NCBI GenBank assembly: GCA_048886185.1
Contig: JBHLKY010000034.1
Location: 1 to 27,921 of the forward strand
From: Candidatus Hermodarchaeota archaeon
GTDB lineage: Archaea; Asgardarchaeota; Heimdallarchaeia; Hodarchaeales; Hodarchaeaceae
Reading direction: 5' to 3'
DNA length: 27,921 nt
Positions 6,564 through 16,267 of the stretch are shown one piece after another. A model generated the notes under the pieces. It made no database searches and was not told the origin of the DNA. It saw nothing but the letters and a program-made list of their open reading frames with translations. The position numbers and the translations under genes are program-made. How positions within the stretch are numbered: position 1 is the stretch's first letter; each line of letters starts with the position of its first letter.

Positions 6564-8267
6564 ATGAAAGACGTTATTATAGCAATTTGTGGTGCAGCTG
6601 GTCAAGGAATTGCAACAGTAGAAGAATTAATCACTGGTATTCTAAAACAAGCTGGTTATCACTGTTACAGTACAAGTGAATTTATGTCTCGAATTCGAGG
6701 GGGCACAAATTCCACAATCATACGAATTTCATCCAGCAGAATTAACCCTGCATTCATTAATCGTATTGATATATTATTACCCCTTCATCATTCGGCATTA
6801 CCACACCTTAAACATAGAATCACCTCAAACACCACTATCCTGGGTGAGGAAAAGAATATAGATGAATCTAGTGTTGATCTAGAGCAAGTAATCAAAATAC
6901 CGTTCTCAGAGATTGCAAAAGAAGTAGGTGGAACTATTTACACCAACATTGTTGGAATTGGAGTATTTCTAGCCTTTTTTGAAGTCGAAGAAGATATTTC
7001 AGAAAGATTTCTCTCAGAACGATTTGCCAGAAAGGGAGATAAAATAGTACACCAAAATATTGAGGCCTGTAAGAGGGGATATTCGATTGGAAATGAACTA
7101 GTTAAAATTGGAAGATTTAAAAATCCGCTTCAAAAGGATAAATCAATACGAAATGACATAGTTCTCAGTGGTGCCGAGACTGTGGGAATAGGAGCAATTG
7201 CAGGAGGATGTAATTTTATTAGTTCATATCCAATGTCACCTAGTACAAGTGTGCTTGTATTTTTATCCCAAAATGCCGAGGATTTTGATATCATCATTGA
7301 TCAAGCTGAAGACGAAATTGCAGCTATCAATAAGAGCATTGCAGCGTGGTATGCAGGTGCAAGGGCAATGATTACAACCTCTGGAGGAGGTTTTGCGTTA
7401 ATGACTGAAGGAGTATCATTAGCAGGCATGCTTGAATCACCAATGGTTCTTCATATAGGCCAACGTCCTGGACCAGCCACAGGATTACCTACAAGAACTG
7501 GCCAAGAAGATTTACAACATGTTCTAAATGCAGGGCACGGAGAATTCCCTAGAGTCATACTAGCTCCAGGAAAACCCCAAGATGCCTTTTATCTAACGCA
7601 AAAAGCATTTAATCTTGCTGATAAATATCAAATCCCAGTTTTCATATTGACGGACCAATTTTTTCTTGATTCACACTATTCTATTCCAGATCTGGATTTA
7701 AACACGATAAAGAATGAGAAGCAGATAGTACGAACCAAAAAAGATTATAAACGATATCAGCTTACTGATGATGGGGTATCCCCAAGGGGGATTCCTGGGT
7801 ACGGTAATGGTCTGGTAAATGTTGATAGTGATGAACATGATGAAGAGGGACACATAACGGAGGATGTTCATGACACCAGACCGAGAATGGTTGAAAAAAG
7901 GCTTTATAAAAAGCTCGAGCTGCTTAAACGAGAGATTATTGAACCAGAGTTAATTGGAAGTAAAAATTATAAGAAACTTGTGATTGGATGGGGATCTACA
8001 TACGGAGTGATTAAGGAAGCGATTGAAAATCTTGGAAAAGACGACATTGGATTCCTTCATTTTAAGCAGGTATACCCTTTAGATGATGCCATTAATAAAA
8101 TACTAAAAAAGGCAGAAAAGACTATTATCATAGAAAACAACGCCACATCACAATTTGGTAAAGTTCTTAAATTAGAACTAGACTTTGATGTTGATGAGAA
8201 ATTTCTCAAGTACAATGGTATGCCTTTCTCTGTTGAGGAAGTTACAGAATTTTTAGAGAAAATTTGA
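6564..8267 (+). CDS. korA: 2-oxoacid:ferredoxin oxidoreductase subunit alpha (fused gamma-alpha type)
   Basis: N-terminal GAAGQGI...SRIRGG gamma domain; YPMSP; [12 protein letters not shown]; [15 protein letters not shown]. Substrate specificity is not determinable from sequence. Confidence 0.92.
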
Positions 8268-8283: not shown

Positions 8284-9147
8284 ATGACAACAGAAATATT
8301 TGATATGCCACAAGATACTGACATTGCATGGTGTCCTGGATGTGGAAACTTTGGAATCCTACATATAGTAAAAACAGCATTAACTGAGCTTAATATTAGG
8401 CCAGAGGAATTAGTAATGGTCTCTGGAATTGGTCAAGCTGCGAAAACTCCTCATTATCTCAAATCGAATATATTTAATGGTCTTCATGGCCGAGCAGTTG
8501 CATCTGCTTTTGCCATCAAAGCTGTAAACCCTTCTCTCACAGTTATTGTTGAAACTGGTGATGGATGCTCCTTTGGAGAAGGAGGAAACCACTTTATTCA
8601 CAATATTCTCAGAAATCCAAACATTGTGCATCTTGCTCATAATAATATGGTTTATGGGCTTACTAAAGGACAAGCCTCCCCCACGAGTCAGTTCGGCTTC
8701 GTCACCCCTGTTCAAGTTCAGGGGGTGACAAACGAACCCTTTAATCCAGTTGCAATAGCAATAACTCTCGATGCAGCCTTTGTAGCCAGAGTTTTTGTTG
8801 GAGATCAAGATAAAACAATAGAAATAATTAAAGCGGCAATTTCACATAAAGGTTATTCATTTGTCGATATATTACAACCTTGTGTAACATTTAACAAAAT
8901 AAATTCTTGGAAATGGTTCAAAGAAAACACATTCTACTTAGAAGATTCACACGAACCTAATAATAAAGTCATGGCTTTTAAACGGGCTACAGAAAAAGGT
9001 AAAATTCCTTTAGGAGTTTTTTATATAACTTCAAAACCCTCTTTTGAGGAACATCTACCTGTCTATAAAACAAAAAAGGATCCACTTTACTTAAGAGAAG
9101 TAAAGCTAGAAAAGCTCAAGAAACTCTTGGACGCAAAAAGGAATTAA
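8284..9147 (+). CDS. korB: 2-oxoacid:ferredoxin oxidoreductase subunit beta
   Basis: WCPGCGNFG; LHGRA; TPP-binding GDG...GGNH...[15 protein letters not shown]; LQPCVTFN. Confidence 0.93.
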
Positions 9148-9180
9148 TTAAACCAAAAAAAGTAACAAAATGGTGATTTA

Positions 9181-9687
9181 TTGGCTGTAAAAGAGGTTTT
9201 AATGATAGGAGACCCAAAACTCAGAGAACCTTCAGAGAATGTTTCAGACTTTGGAGAAAATCTCCAACGAATAATACAGGATTTGAAAGATACGCTTACA
9301 CATCTTCAGGCATCCAAGAAGATTGGAAGAGCGTTAGCTGCTCCTCAAATTGGATATAAGAAAAAAGTTATCTACTATGGGCTTCCTGATGAACCCTTTG
9401 TTATGATCAATCCAAAAATAATAAGTAAAAGCCAAGAAAAAATCTGGATATGGGATAGTTGCTTTAGTTTTGATGTGGCCTTTTTTATAGAAATCTTACG
9501 CCATAAGCAAATAAATGTAGAATATTTAAATGAAAGTGGCAAATTAGAGAGGAAGAAGTTCAAAGATGACTTATCAGAATTAGTTCAGCATGAAACAGAT
9601 CACTTAGAGGGAGTTCTGGCAACAGATCATTTAACAGATGTCAAAAGGATTATGCTTCGAAAAGAATGGGAAAAAAGAGTTAGGTGA
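9181..9687 (+). CDS. def: Peptide deformylase family protein with atypical motifs
   Basis: GDPKLRE; motif 1 GRALAAPQIG; motif 2 DSCFS; motif 3 QHETDHLEG. TTG start with GGTGA upstream. Confidence 0.88.
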   Translation: MAVKEVLMIGDPKLREPSENVSDFGENLQRIIQDLKDTLTHLQASKKIGRALAAPQIGYKKKVIYYGLPDEPFVMINPKIISKSQEKIWIWDSCFSFDVAFFIEILRHKQINVEYLNESGKLERKKFKDDLSELVQHETDHLEGVLATDHLTDVKRIMLRKEWEKRVR

Positions 9688-11179: not shown

Positions 11180-11234
11180 CACTATGCTAAAGAATCTTTT
11201 TCAATGTTCACTATAAATAACGTTTGTGCAAATG

Positions 11235-11549
11235 ATGAAACTACGAATTCAGTTATTTGGACAATTAGGAGCGAATTTAGGTTCTAACATAGAATTAAGG
11301 TTTAATGAGAAAGAACCAACTCTTCGAGAAGTCATTGAGATGCTAATCAAAAAAGATGAAAAATTAGAATCTCTGCTATTGAAAGGAAATGATTTGAAAC
11401 ATGGTACAATTCTCTTGGTTAACGGACATATTGTTGATAGATCACAATGGGGCCTAGATGAGAGTCTTAAACACCGAGATCACGTGACAATCGATCAATT
11501 AGGTTTTCTGCCCATTGTAGGTGGAGGTTATAATTGCCATATTAGGTGA
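11235..11549 (+). CDS. moaD: MoaD/ThiS/SAMP family ubiquitin-like sulfur carrier with a C-terminal extension after GGG
   Basis: MKLRIQLFG, PTLREVIEML, ILLVNG, and LPIVGGG followed by YNCHIR. Lies directly upstream of a Mo-hydroxylase. Alternative starts are GTG 11226 and ATG 11232. Confidence 0.8.
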   Translation: MKLRIQLFGQLGANLGSNIELRFNEKEPTLREVIEMLIKKDEKLESLLLKGNDLKHGTILLVNGHIVDRSQWGLDESLKHRDHVTIDQLGFLPIVGGGYNCHIR

Positions 11550-11550
11550 T
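11544..11550 (+). promoter_or_regulatory. Shine-Dalgarno site AGGTGAT for the Mo-hydroxylase large subunit, overlapping the moaD stop
   Basis: AGGTGAT 7 nt upstream of ATG 11558. Confidence 0.65.
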
Positions 11551-11557
11551 CTGAGTT

Positions 11558-13927
11558 ATGGTAAATTATGTTGGTCAATCAATCCCACGTAAAGATGCTT
11601 TTAACAAGGTATCTGGTGCTGCTATTTATGCTTTTGATATAGACAACTTTCCTAACATGCTTTACTGTAAGTTTTTAACATCACCACACGCGCATGCTCA
11701 GATTCTTTCTATCGATACTTCAAAAGCTGAAGAATTACCAGGGGTCGCAGCTGTTGTAACAGGTAAAGATTGGCCTATAAAAATAGGATTATATGCAGGA
11801 GATCGTGACATTCTGGCTGTAGAGAAAGTTGTTTGGCTCGGTCAACCAGTAGTCGCTGTAGCTGCAGAGTCAGAGAGATTAGCATCTCAGGCTCTGGAAC
11901 TAGTTAATATACACTATGAAATACTCCCCAATGTTTTAGATCCACTTGAGGCTAAAAACTCAACAAAAATCCTTGTTCATGAAAAGATGGCTGAATATGA
12001 ACATTCACCTGCTTTCAATCCTATTCCTGGTACTAACATTGCAAACCATTTCAAATTACGTAAGGGTGACATCAAGAAAGGCTTCGCTCAATCCGATTTA
12101 ATAATAGAAAACACGTTTTCTATGCCCCAAGTAGCTCATGCATACCTAGAACCACTTGTTTCAATTGGTCAATACAAAGAAGATGGAACAATACAAGTCT
12201 GGTCATCTGCACAATCACCCTTTACGGTAAGGTATTTACTTGGAGCTACGTTTGGAGTACCTATATCAAATATTACCGTCCATACCCCCTTCCTCGGTGG
12301 AGGTTTTGGGGGTAAAGCAGGTCTAAATTTTGAACCTCTAGTAGTTTTACTTTCACGAAAAGCGAATAATAGACCAGTAAAACTTCGATTGACTCGAGAA
12401 GAGAATTTTCGTAGCGCTCCTATTAGGGTAGGGATGATTGCGCATGTGAAAACAGGATTGAAGTCAAATGGTAGAATACTGGCAGAAGAACTTGAATATA
12501 TATGGGATTCAGGTGCATGTGCAGATTACGCAGTAAATGTAGGGCGTGCAGGTGGTTATGTTTCAATAGGCCCATACGATATTGATAACATTAAATCTGA
12601 TTCTTATACTATTTATACCAATAAACCCTACGCAACCGCTTTTCGTGGATTTGGCCATATGGAATTACATTGGGCCATTGAAAGACAACGTGATACCATT
12701 GCTAATGCTTTAAAGATGGATCCAGTTGAATTTCGGAAAATTAACACTCTGAAACCAGGAATATCTCTAACTGCAAATCAAGAGTGTCTTCGTACAGATG
12801 CAGGAAATCTCGATCAATGTCTTGAAAAGGTTTGGACTGAATTAAAATATGGCTTCTCAAACTCTCCAGTTGAAAAACCATGGTTATTTCGCGGCATTGG
12901 GATTGCAGGTTTTATGAAAGGGCCTGCTCAACCACCCAATAGTTCTGCATCAGCTTATGTTAAGTTTAATGAAGATGGAGGTATTTTAGTTTCTGTCGGA
13001 ACATCAGAGATGGGACAAGGAACTATTACAAGCCTTGCCCAAATTGCAGCTGAAGAATTAGGACTTCCTATAGAAAAAGTCAAGATCAGAGGAGACCGAG
13101 ACACTGATCGTGATGCATATACATGGCAAACTGTAGGATCCCGCTCTTTATTCATGGATGGAAATGCTGTTAAGAATGCCTGTAAAGACGCAAAATCACA
13201 AATACTTGAGTTAGCAAGTCAAGTATTACATGTTCAATCTGATGACTTAATAATTGAAAATGAACTAATATTTCCCAGGGGAGAAAAATGGAAACACATG
13301 AGTCTAGCTGAACTCGCAATGGGTTACATGTATGCCACTGGTGAATCTATAGGGGGACCTATAATCGGTAGAGGAAAGTATATTGCTAAAATGACAATGT
13401 TAGATCCAGAAACAGGTGCCGGAAAACCAGCTATCTTTGATACATTTGGAGCTCACGGAGTTGAAATTGAGATAAATGTCTTAACAGGGGAAATTACGGT
13501 TAAACGCTTGATTTCGGCATTTGATATCGGAAAAGCAATCAATCCGAGATTATGTGAAGGACAAATAATAGGAGGAAGTGTAATGGCTTTATCAATCGCA
13601 TTGAATGAACAACTTCAATACAATGAGGAGGGTGAGCTATTAAATCCTAATTTGGTAGACTATGTAATTGCTCGATCAGGGGATATTCCTGGAGAATTTG
13701 TTTCTTATTTAATAGAGAATCCACAAGAAGATGGACCCTATGGCGCAAGGGGCATTGGTGAGTTGACAATGCTCGGTGTGCCTGCTGCAGTAGGTAATGC
13801 TATATTTAATGCGATTGGTGTCCAAATTAATGATTTACCTCTCACACCCCAGAAAGTTTGGTCAGAAATTCACCAACAACGACCAGAACTCATAATGTCT
13901 ATGAAAAAGAGAATTTTGGAGGATTAA
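11558..13927 (+). CDS. Xanthine dehydrogenase family molybdopterin-binding (large) subunit
   Basis: HAYLEP; WSSAQSPF; GGGFGGK; AFRGFG; GQG..T...QIAAEELG; TVGSRS; GARGIGE with the catalytic Glu. Confidence 0.93.
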   Translation: MVNYVGQSIPRKDAFNKVSGAAIYAFDIDNFPNMLYCKFLTSPHAHAQILSIDTSKAEELPGVAAVVTGKDWPIKIGLYAGDRDILAVEKVVWLGQPVVAVAAESERLASQALELVNIHYEILPNVLDPLEAKNSTKILVHEKMAEYEHSPAFNPIPGTNIANHFKLRKGDIKKGFAQSDLIIENTFSMPQVAHAYLEPLVSIGQYKEDGTIQVWSSAQSPFTVRYLLGATFGVPISNITVHTPFLGGGFGGKAGLNFEPLVVLLSRKANNRPVKLRLTREENFRSAPIRVGMIAHVKTGLKSNGRILAEELEYIWDSGACADYAVNVGRAGGYVSIGPYDIDNIKSDSYTIYTNKPYATAFRGFGHMELHWAIERQRDTIANALKMDPVEFRKINTLKPGISLTANQECLRTDAGNLDQCLEKVWTELKYGFSNSPVEKPWLFRGIGIAGFMKGPAQPPNSSASAYVKFNEDGGILVSVGTSEMGQGTITSLAQIAAEELGLPIEKVKIRGDRDTDRDAYTWQTVGSRSLFMDGNAVKNACKDAKSQILELASQVLHVQSDDLIIENELIFPRGEKWKHMSLAELAMGYMYATGESIGGPIIGRGKYIAKMTMLDPETGAGKPAIFDTFGAHGVEIEINVLTGEITVKRLISAFDIGKAINPRLCEGQIIGGSVMALSIALNEQLQYNEEGELLNPNLVDYVIARSGDIPGEFVSYLIENPQEDGPYGARGIGELTMLGVPAAVGNAIFNAIGVQINDLPLTPQKVWSEIHQQRPELIMSMKKRILED

Positions 13928-13929
13928 AG

Positions 13930-14790
13930 ATGACTGAAACTATCTCACATGTAAACCTTCCTCAGTTTGAGATTCTAATCCCCAATTCAATAGAAGAAGC
14001 ATTAAAAATGCTTCACAGTCACCGAGATAACTGTAAGCTTCTTGCTGGAGGAACAGATCTATTGAACGACCTTCGTCATCGATTAATACGACCAAAGGTT
14101 CTTATTGACATAAAAAACGTTCCAGAATTGAATACACTCGAATTCACACCAAATGAGGTACAAATTGGAGCAGCAGTAGCTATTTCCGAAGTATTGAAAC
14201 AGCCTCTGTTAAAAGTGCATTATAATGCACTTTATCAAGCACTTAATGACATGTGTGATGAAATCCTGAGGAAAAGGGCTACTATAGGAGGAAATATTGC
14301 AACAGCTTCCCCAGCAGCGGACACTGCTGCCCCTCTTTTTGTACATCAAGCTGTAGTCGAAGTTCAATCTCAATCTAGAGGAAATAGGCGAATACCAATC
14401 GTTGAATTCTTTAGAGGAGTGAAAAAAAACGATCTTGTTTCTGATGAGCTAATAGTTTCAATCACAATTCCTAAACCTATCTCTGGAAATAAGTCAGCAT
14501 TTATGAAGATGAAGCGTGGAGTAGAAGATTTAGCTCTAGTAGGAGTTGCAGGTTCACATGATCAACACCGAACATACTTAGGCTTCACAGCTGTAGCTCC
14601 GACACCTATATTTTTAGATATATCAGCTCTCATAACCAATAACCAGATCTCTGAAGATGTATTCCAACCAATATGGCAGGAGATTCTATCAAACATAAAT
14701 CCCATAACTGATGTACGTTCATGTAGAGAATACCGCATTCATATTGCAGAAATATTAACTAGATTAATCATCAAGGAGATTATGTCATGA
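13930..14790 (+). CDS. Xanthine dehydrogenase family FAD-binding (medium) subunit
   Basis: AGGTDL; RATIGGNIATASPAAD; P+TDVRS..EYR. The likely start is ATG 13930 (GGAGG upstream, 2 nt after the large-subunit stop), not 13858. Confidence 0.92.
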   Translation: MTETISHVNLPQFEILIPNSIEEALKMLHSHRDNCKLLAGGTDLLNDLRHRLIRPKVLIDIKNVPELNTLEFTPNEVQIGAAVAISEVLKQPLLKVHYNALYQALNDMCDEILRKRATIGGNIATASPAADTAAPLFVHQAVVEVQSQSRGNRRIPIVEFFRGVKKNDLVSDELIVSITIPKPISGNKSAFMKMKRGVEDLALVGVAGSHDQHRTYLGFTAVAPTPIFLDISALITNNQISEDVFQPIWQEILSNINPITDVRSCREYRIHIAEILTRLIIKEIMS

Positions 14791-15254
14791 AAAAGCACAT
14801 AAGAGTTATTGTAAATACTAAAACTTATGATATTCTAGCTAAACCTAATGAAACTTTACTTGATATTTTACGTAATCACCTACACATCACATCAGTTAAA
14901 GCAGCCTGTTGGCAGGGCGATTGTGGAATATGCACTGTTCTCCTCGAAGGAATTCCAATTAAATCTTGTTTAGTACTAGCACATGAAGCAAATAACAAAA
15001 ATATATTAACAGTTGAAGGTTTATCAAGAGAAGGAGTTATTTCAAATCTCCAAAAGTCATTTATCACTAGTGGAGCTGTTCAGTGTGGATTTTGTACTTC
15101 AGCGTTTCTGCTTATGGGGCACTACCTTTTATCACAGGGTAAACCACTAGACCGAAAAGAAGTTGGACATCTATTAAATGGGATTATCTGCAGATGTACC
15201 GGATATAAACAAATTATTGATTCAATCATTGCAATTAATACAATCACGGAGTAA
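14787..15254 (+). CDS. Xanthine dehydrogenase family 2x[2Fe-2S] (small) subunit
   Basis: CWQGDCGICTV...SCL and QCGFCT...CRCTGY; ATGA overlap with the medium subunit. Confidence 0.94.
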   Translation: MKKHIRVIVNTKTYDILAKPNETLLDILRNHLHITSVKAACWQGDCGICTVLLEGIPIKSCLVLAHEANNKNILTVEGLSREGVISNLQKSFITSGAVQCGFCTSAFLLMGHYLLSQGKPLDRKEVGHLLNGIICRCTGYKQIIDSIIAINTITE

Positions 15255-15328
15255 TCTAATCAACGAATCCAAATCTTATTCAAATAACGTCATTTCTTCC
15301 AAGATTAAAATGAATTGCGGGTATATTC

Positions 15329-16267
15329 TTGAAAGTGAGGTTTGAATGTCTTTATTGTCTATTTCACAGAGCAGAAAGACAAATAGAAAGGTTAACAACC
15401 AATGAAGAACTTCGTTTTAGAGCTTTAGCTGGAGTAATCCGAATTATTGCCAACCATGTAGATCCTAGTGGTTCTGAGAATATTTCTCATCCTCTTCGAC
15501 TTTGTCCCAGTTACATTGGTACTAAACGAGACAGATTTCTTCAAACATTCTTTCAAGTAGTTGACATATACAAGAAAGAGAAGTCAGAAACCAAAGCTCA
15601 AACGCTCTATCTTTGGCGTATGATTCAAAATGAGATGAAAAGCTTAAGTAATTTGCAAAAACAGCTGAATAAAGCTTTAGCATTAGCTACAGCAGCTAAT
15701 ATCATCGAATATGACCTTTTAACTCAGAAAAGGGAACCCAATATAAACCAAAAGATAGAGTTCGTCTTTAATTTTGCAGAAAAAGAATGGGATGACCTTT
15801 CTTATGAATTAATTCCTAACTTTTTGTCTAATATTAAATCAGCAAATAAAATTCTGTACCTTACTGATAACATTGGAGAAACTGTGTTTGATGCAAAAGT
15901 CATTGACATCCTCTTACACCTAGGTAAAGATATTATCATTGCAGGAAAAAGCAAACCTATTTTGAATGATGCTACTTATTTGGACTTAAGAGAACTTTGG
16001 GATAAAATAAATTGCAAAAATGATCTGAAAATCATTTCTATTGGTACGAATTCTGTAGGACTACTTCTAGATGAAGTATCAGACGAGTTTCAGGAAGCCA
16101 TGAGTGAATGTGATTTAATTATAGCCAAAGGAATGGGTCACTTTGAAACTCTACCAGAGTATGATTGGAATCAAGCTGTTTGGTGTCTCTTTCGTACAAA
16201 ATGTAATCCAGTTGCAATGGAAGCAAATTCAATTCTTGGAAAAAATTGTATTAGAAAAATTGCTTAG
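15329..16267 (+). CDS. DUF89/ARMT1-like damage-control metal-dependent phosphatase (subfamily I-like)
   Basis: N-terminal ECLYC; LYLTDNIGETVFD; PILNDAT; IIAKGMGHFETL; TKCNPVA. Confidence 0.85.
   Translation: MKVRFECLYCLFHRAERQIERLTTNEELRFRALAGVIRIIANHVDPSGSENISHPLRLCPSYIGTKRDRFLQTFFQVVDIYKKEKSETKAQTLYLWRMIQNEMKSLSNLQKQLNKALALATAANIIEYDLLTQKREPNINQKIEFVFNFAEKEWDDLSYELIPNFLSNIKSANKILYLTDNIGETVFDAKVIDILLHLGKDIIIAGKSKPILNDATYLDLRELWDKINCKNDLKIISIGTNSVGLLLDEVSDEFQEAMSECDLIIAKGMGHFETLPEYDWNQAVWCLFRTKCNPVAMEANSILGKNCIRKIA

Follow-up and report, generated by a model that had tools for sequence, protein, structure and literature searches.

A Type 3-like peptide deformylase gene beside korAB in a Hodarchaeales archaeon and the accessory clade to which it belongs

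Introduction

Canonical peptide deformylases (PDFs, types 1 and 2) share motifs that in their updated forms read G-Phi-G-Phi-A-A-x-Q (motif I) and E-G-C-L-S (motif II) (PMC12690207). Type 3 PDFs, known from Archaea, protists and certain bacteria, carry substitutions in motifs I and II, and no structure of one has been solved (PMC12690207, PMC5591237). They have weak or no activity in some cases and are active in trypanosomes (PMC12690207, PMC5591237). Which formylated substrate archaeal PDFs act on is described as unknown (PMC3660681). In the Giglione/Meinnel classification, Type 3 is a heterogeneous bin that includes trypanosomatid enzymes, second copies of Streptococcus and Staphylococcus, and methanogen enzymes. 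The presence of Type 3 PDFs in Asgard archaea is already on record, as the preliminary description of the present locus had noted for divergent PDF-like proteins in archaea generally: the tree of Grzela et al. 2017 lists "Candidatus thorarchaeota" and "Lokiarchaeum sp" among Type 3 (supplement of PMC5591237). Literature searches combining peptide deformylase with archaea and Asgard, or with aspartate racemase, returned no account of the function or gene context of Asgard PDFs.

Two described enzymes of known structure are close to the protein studied here. The Type 1B PDF of Thermotoga maritima (PDB 1LME) serves as a housekeeping enzyme in a bacterium that has fmt, and its motifs are the canonical G-x-G-L-A-A-x-Q and EGCLS. 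Def2 of Vibrio cholerae (PDB 3QU1, 9QFT) is a second, mobile copy beside a canonical def (PMC12690207). The motifs of Def2 remain canonical, and the enzyme sustains growth as a genuine PDF.

Here we describe a PDF-family gene of an Asgard archaeon and compare it with these systems. It lies in a stretch of DNA of 27,921 nucleotides (the window), which is contig C34 of a 4.84-Mb host genome (G000) that is 96% complete and contains a single PDF gene. The features of the window are collected in Table 1.

Table 1. Coordinates of the PDF gene, its motifs and the surrounding features in the window
Feature	Position	Strand	Basis
TPR protein, first of a tandem paralogous pair, 744 aa	1418..3652	+	
TPR protein, second of the pair, 746 aa	3796..6036	+	
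'korA', 2-oxoacid:acceptor oxidoreductase alpha subunit, fused gamma and alpha domains	6564..8267	+	622 bits to TIGR03710, above cut-off
'korB', 2-oxoacid:ferredoxin oxidoreductase beta subunit	8284..9147	+	448.6 bits to NF008821, above cut-off
korB-PDF spacer, 33 nt, A-rich, no T-run; length varies among six aligned ortholog junctions	9148..9180	+	
GGTGAT, Shine-Dalgarno-like element, 3 nt 5' of the TTG start	9172..9177	+	
PDF-family gene, Type-3-like variant, 168 aa, TTG start	9181..9687	+	ORF, profile matches, AF2 model
Motif I, GRALAAPQ (residues 49-56), Gln56 kept	9325..9348	+	Sequence, subfamily alignment
Motif II region, W-DSCFS (DSCFS = residues 92-96); Cys94 metal ligand; Trp91 subfamily-invariant	9451..9468	+	
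Motif III, QHETDH (residues 136-141); His137 and His141 metal ligands, Glu138 catalytic	9586..9603	+	
Convergent conserved hypothetical gene, 461 aa	9756..11141	-	
MoaD/ThiS/SAMP-like small protein, then XdhA-like molybdopterin oxidoreductase large subunit and further subunit genes	11226..16267	+	

Results

The window protein has the fold and catalytic residues of a PDF

The protein matches the Pfam family PF01327 (Pep_deformylase) with an E value of 3.9e-39 and 134.2 bits (cut-off 22.8), over profile positions 2-155 of 156. It also scores 111.9 bits against TIGR00079, the NCBIfam equivalog for peptide deformylase, above the cut-off of 103.95. An AF2 model built on 31 relatives has a pLDDT of 92.8 and a pTM of 0.87, and Foldseek aligns it with many solved PDFs at TM scores of 0.80-0.87. 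The metal ligands Cys94, His137 and His141, the catalytic Glu138, and Gln56 of motif I are invariant among the 31 aligned subfamily members. Profile matches, catalytic residues and fold thus all place the protein in the peptide deformylase family. Sequence and profiles also confirm the open reading frame, the three motifs and the same-strand position after korB that the preliminary description had given.

Among proteins with a structure, 1LME is the best match both by sequence (E 7e-24) and by structure (TM 0.81/0.92, rmsd 1.8 Å, 32% identity). It belongs to the same length class and has the same C-terminal helix. Def2 of V. cholerae is among the best sequence matches as well (E 3.7e-23), but the window PDF differs from it in motifs I and II and resides in a host without formylated proteins.

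The TTG start is supported because residues 1-7 match the N-terminal strand of PDFs with known structures, a segment conserved in all relatives aligned, and because TTG and a GGTG located 4-5 nt upstream of it are kept in 6/6 korAB-linked orthologs. The sequence contains no N-terminal hydrophobic signal. The gene is intact and under purifying selection, with a dN/dS of 0.05-0.14 in the pairs with unsaturated dS; several other pairs are saturated.

Motifs I and II depart from the canonical form. In motif I, Ala replaces the second Gly, and Arg50 occupies the place of a hydrophobic Ile/Val whose backbone binds the substrate and whose side chain lines the S1' site (PMC5071857). In motif II, Asp92 stands for Glu and Ser93 for Gly. 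By the published definition (PMC12690207, PMC5591237), these substitutions mark the protein as Type-3-like, and it resembles the Type 3 enzymes in fold, metal site and archaeal occurrence. Unlike the Type 3 bin, the window PDF falls into one coherent sub-clade, which is characterized by Arg50, Trp91-Asp92 and a clade-specific Glu133-Leu134 on the N-terminal side of motif III.

The substrate pocket is predicted to be polar

In the PDF of S. agalactiae, the Met side chain is held in a hydrophobic pocket (PMC5071857). The pocket is composed of the residue after the first Gly of motif I, the Leu six residues before the Cys, the Glu of motif II, the residues seven and three positions before the first His of motif III, and that His (PMC5071857). 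The peptide backbone pairs with the motif I residue and the Gly of motif II (PMC5071857); Gly89 and Ile44 contact actinonin (PMC13746276). The equivalent positions in the window PDF, assigned by a motif-anchored alignment, are Arg50, Ile88, Asp92, Asp130, Leu134 and His137, with Ser93 in place of the Gly. In addition, Glu133 is present clade-wide, one helical turn before His137.

These residues suggest a pocket more polar than in canonical PDFs. Such a pocket argues against a Met-tuned site, and the enzyme probably prefers something other than a methionine side chain. In canonical PDFs, the position of Glu133 is often occupied by Arg, so Arg50 and Glu133 may constitute a swapped structural pair rather than a specificity switch.

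The PDF belongs to a patchily distributed clade

The nearest relatives form a tight subfamily of 168-residue proteins that are 53-77% identical to the window protein, with 46 positions invariant among the 31 aligned members. The subfamily node has a support of 99/98. Its members come from several Asgard families and from Bacteroidota, Orenia, Thermohalobacter and Halanaerobiales. Loki-type genomes carry orthologs 53-62% identical to the window protein, which, given the published listing of the Lokiarchaeum and Thorarchaeota PDFs, indirectly suggests a place among Type 3. A Heimdall-class copy is sister to a Halanaerobiales copy in the tree. A second Asgard group, 37-45% identical to the window protein, belongs to a different clade together with Bacteroidota and Clostridiaceae; it dominates the family (f31) that holds Thorarchaeota OWC3. 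In total, a PDF match is present in 79/400 Asgard genomes. This patchy distribution, along with a tree that mixes Asgard families with bacteria, points to a horizontally mobile accessory gene that Asgard archaea acquired more than once. No mobile-element genes flank the PDF in the window.

An exhaustive search places the subfamily within a large clade. The clade has a signature of an Arg after the first Gly of motif I, a Trp-Asp before the Cys, and a Glu-Leu located four and three residues before the first His of motif III. These positions co-vary. Five bacterial genomes were searched, and each contains two PDF genes, namely a clade member and a higher-scoring canonical PDF. In this respect, the bacterial members of the clade resemble Def2 of V. 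cholerae, which likewise accompanies a canonical def.

The clade also includes P0258, a sequence from a eukaryotic transcriptome (eukprot) that carries GRAIAAVQ and WDDCMS. Its nearest named relatives are bacterial metagenome proteins and contamination or transfer is possible, so no link between Asgard and eukaryotic PDFs is claimed. The published Type 3 list shows Asgard PDFs beside those of Amoebozoa, Heterolobosea and ciliates (supplement of PMC5591237).

The host lacks fmt

The host is a Hodarchaeales archaeon of the GTDB genus of Ca. Hodarchaeum mangrovi. The genome is archaeal, since it encodes ribosomal protein L31e, and the close homologs are labelled Hodarchaeota, Hodarchaeales or Heimdallarchaeota. 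A binning error is unlikely because the korAB-PDF block is also present in a closed 4.94-Mb congener genome.

The fMet initiation that a canonical PDF serves requires fmt. No fmt above cut-off was found in the host genome, where the sole weak match is PurN (176 bits against a cut-off of 150). None of 41 relatives has an fmt over the cut-off, while bacterial controls were positive in the same search. The host does not make fMet-tRNA. The missing fmt therefore excludes a housekeeping role on nascent chains, in agreement with the earlier expectation for this gene.

The linkage to korAB is confined to close relatives

The genes korA and korB encode a two-subunit 2-oxoacid:acceptor oxidoreductase. 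The name korAB is used here as a family name only, as substrate specificity is not readable from the profile matches. The PDF is probably co-transcribed with korAB, as proposed earlier: the A-rich spacer spans few nucleotides, no T-run follows korB, and both GGTG and TTG are kept among the linked orthologs. A short T-rich stretch is located 3' of the PDF stop.

Within the genus, the PDF is present in 10/21 other genomes and is absent from half of the congeners, including genomes that are 93-94% complete. It directly follows korB only in the host (G000), in G003, G007, G008, G010 and G012, and on the P0009 contig, and there the whole block is syntenic. The korAB-linked PDFs form one small clade in the tree. 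Genome G021 has the most similar korB (86% identity), yet there the convergent 461-aa gene comes ~67 nt after korAB and no PDF intervenes. The PDF of G021 has an ATG start and is located on another contig than its korAB. In congeners whose korB is 77-79% identical, no PDF was found downstream of korB.

Beyond the genus, none of the PDF loci examined adjoins korAB, those of Loki-type genomes, P0029, P0006, Orenia, Halanaerobiales and Bacteroidota among them, and the PDF locus of H. mangrovi shows none either. In Thermohalobacter, a four-subunit oxidoreductase is located 1.6 kb upstream of the PDF, with two genes between. Orthologs of korAB occur in 34/41 genomes of the class.

The korAB-PDF linkage is a recent, lineage-restricted arrangement of one sub-clade of one genus. 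It had been expected to recur in other genomes, and its absence elsewhere in the material examined goes largely against that expectation. The position beside korAB thus appears to be an opportunistic local accident in ~7 close congeners and not a dedicated pathway operon. A joint transfer of korA, korB and the PDF, which had also been suggested, is contradicted because korAB orthologs occur class-wide without the PDF and because the PDF tree shows its own horizontal history. The korAB "operon" of the window should not be read as a pathway.

Two further observations concern the congeners. In genome G014, the PDF is represented only by fragments that in-frame TGA and TAG codons interrupt, on a very short contig (C247:9-376), and the contig with korAB stops directly 3' of korB; the gene may be a pseudogene there, or the assembly may be broken. 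In two congeners, genes of Ras-family small GTPases adjoin the PDF or stand two genes off (L021:4057-4617, L023:3629-4180).

A racemase-family gene is the recurrent partner of the clade

The neighbors of 70-odd PDF loci, taken from a sequence search of genomes, were clustered. One clear recurrent partner emerged, a gene of the Asp/Glu/hydantoin-racemase family (Asp_Glu_race), which directly adjoins the PDF in 15 loci and lies no more than three genes away in 18. Adjacency occurs in at least five contexts; the racemase-linked loci come from two Loki-type genera, genomes G307 and G021, one Acidobacteriaceae genome and one Eisenbacteria genome. The two Loki-type genera share the gene order MGMT-like, PDF, racemase, MFS transporter. 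On the archaeal contig P0029, the racemase adjoins a PDF that is 70% identical to the window protein. MFS transporters stand beside the PDF in the Loki-type, H. mangrovi and P0029 loci. In H. mangrovi, the MFS gene is upstream, and a nucleotidyltransferase gene is located right after the PDF.

Gene fusions extend these associations. A 392-aa Tissierellia protein, found on at least 19 contigs, joins a PDF to a racemase half that passes the TIGR00035 cut-off. Complete genomes of Bordetella genomosp. 9 encode a PDF fused to a PLP enzyme resembling threonine/serine dehydratase. Other fusions in the clade contain a GNAT acetyltransferase, in one case with 52-53% identity to the window protein, an ANT(4')-like nucleotidyltransferase, or a glyoxalase-fold domain. 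Such partners have amino acids or small molecules as their targets rather than ribosomes. The neighborhoods are heterogeneous, and many neighbors look damage-controlling or drug-modifying rather than catabolic.

The racemase module is absent from the window. The single racemase ortholog of the host is located on another contig (C21:33842-34531), where a MMPL transporter, a class I Trp/Tyr-type aminoacyl-tRNA synthetase and TldD/PmbA surround it and give no further clue. No MFS partner for the PDF was found in the host genome.

Some loci have additional features. In G307, a LarA-like gene of the lactate racemase family lies between the PDF and the Asp/Glu racemase (L173:6809-7924), so that two racemase-type genes stand in a row. 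The P0029 racemase (L210:5594-6745) comprises 383 residues, of which the N-terminal 160 weakly match DinB_2. The MGMT-like gene, which resembles O6-methylguanine-DNA methyltransferase (DNA_binding_1, with Methyltransf_1N in the bacterial copies), adjoins the PDF in L172 and L174-L176 (Loki-type) and in L034-L036 and L039 (Acidobacteria).

Discussion

We consider it an even chance that the window PDF works in the cytoplasm and hydrolyzes N-formyl amino acids or short peptides that the cell has imported. In a peptide-fermenting cytoplasm, the enzyme would strip the N-formyl block from such compounds, with release of formate. The amine freed in this way would be open to peptidases, racemases, aminotransferases and finally 2-oxoacid:ferredoxin oxidoreductases. 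Cultured Hodarchaeales are reported to be obligate peptide degraders, a way of life that suits a cytoplasmic enzyme for freeing amino acids or peptides of an N-formyl group. The catabolic deformylase of the preliminary description is retained in this form, favored by the association of the clade with racemases, MFS transporters and PLP enzymes and by the dependence of cultured Hodarchaeales on peptides for growth, but fMet peptides as its substrate are made less plausible by the partly charged pocket. Known small-molecule N-formyl amidohydrolases include formylmethionine deformylase (EC 3.5.1.31) and N-formylglutamate amidohydrolase. The likeness to them lies in the proposed chemistry only, the release of formate in catabolism, and no sequence kinship is claimed. 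Natural pools of free N-formyl amino acids are, to our knowledge, poorly documented.

A broader and more tentative proposal concerns the whole clade defined by the Arg, Trp-Asp and Glu-Leu signature. Its members might be stand-alone amidohydrolases of N-formyl, or small N-acyl, amino acids with a polar pocket, which together with the Asp/Glu-type racemase and an MFS transporter would salvage D/L amino-acid derivatives. If true, the amidohydrolase reading would give archaeal Type 3 PDFs a substrate.

Other roles have to be weighed against hydrolysis of imported compounds. An enzyme of damage control or repair, removing adventitious N-formyl or small acyl groups from endogenous metabolites or proteins rather than from food, is unlikely, though it ranks ahead of the remaining alternatives. 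Formylated amines arising from reactive one-carbon species would be an example of its substrates. It would suit the MGMT-like gene beside clade PDFs in four Acidobacteria and four Loki-type loci, NUDIX genes near the PDF in two loci, DJ-1/PfpI genes upstream in Orenia, and the fusion of a glyoxalase domain to PDF. However, each such neighbor is a common gene seen in few lineages, none is near the PDF in the window, and the most recurrent partner is a racemase with an adjoining transporter. The Orenia locus had raised the idea of isonitrile detoxification by PDF and isonitrile hydratase, a DJ-1 family protein; the idea was dropped as it was based on a single locus. Drug-modifying neighbors suggest yet another role, that of an inhibitor-insensitive copy or a processor of N-formylated peptide antibiotics, carried horizontally. 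Susceptibility to actinonin is lowered by accessory PDFs that bacteria carry on mobile elements (PMC12690207), and neighbors or fusions in the clade include AAC(3), ANT(4')-like, GNAT, beta-lactamase-fold, S66 peptidase and toxin-antitoxin genes. In an archaeon that lacks fMet, though, there is no PDF target in need of protection, flanking mobile-element genes are missing in the window, and the conservation of the gene in many Asgard lineages speaks for a benefit to the archaeon itself; an antibiotic-related role is improbable.

We rate equally low a three-gene pathway operon in which deformylated amino acids would be converted to 2-oxoacids and oxidized by KorAB. The common strand, the 33-nt spacer, the conserved GGTG and TTG and the synteny in ~7 congeners are compatible with such a partnership, as is the upstream oxidoreductase of Thermohalobacter. 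Against it stand G021 and the congeners with a 77-79% identical korB, in which no PDF follows korB, the lack of linkage in the loci examined outside the genus, and a window that contains no aminotransferase or dehydrogenase linking deformylation to KorAB. A dedicated feed of PDF products into the adjacent oxidoreductase, as first proposed, thus does not hold beyond the close relatives that share the linkage. The two extremes of function fare worst. A classical role, co-translational deformylation of proteins that the archaeon itself formylates, could draw on the complete predicted fold with its C-terminal helix, as in ribosome-binding type 1 enzymes, but this reading is close to refuted by the lack of an fmt over the cut-off in the host and in all 41 relatives and by the absence of the gene from half of the congeners. 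A functionless passenger of recent transfer would explain the patchy distribution and the interrupted fragments of G014; it is close to excluded, given the low dN/dS, the invariant catalytic residues and the 53-77% identity across distant Asgard families.

One more occurrence of a PDF alone adds little. What the comparison contributes is the clade signature and the association with a racemase, a transporter and PLP enzymes, which make the old question of the substrate testable. The sub-clade signature, the second copies of bacteria, the linked or fused partners and the strong purifying selection in a lineage without fMet provide handles for experiments. For Asgard biology, the gene is a further accessory gene of bacterial type that peptide-fermenting anaerobes of sediments exchange with one another.

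Other genes in the window

The product of the convergent gene 3' of the PDF has no Pfam or NCBIfam match. It is 48-63% identical among congeners and adjoins korB where the PDF is missing. The tandem TPR proteins upstream of korA are ~49-57% identical to each other's orthologs and are kept in the congeners G010 and G008. The block that begins with the MoaD/ThiS/SAMP-like protein is syntenic among congeners, and on one congener contig a gene for a FAD-binding subunit follows XdhA.
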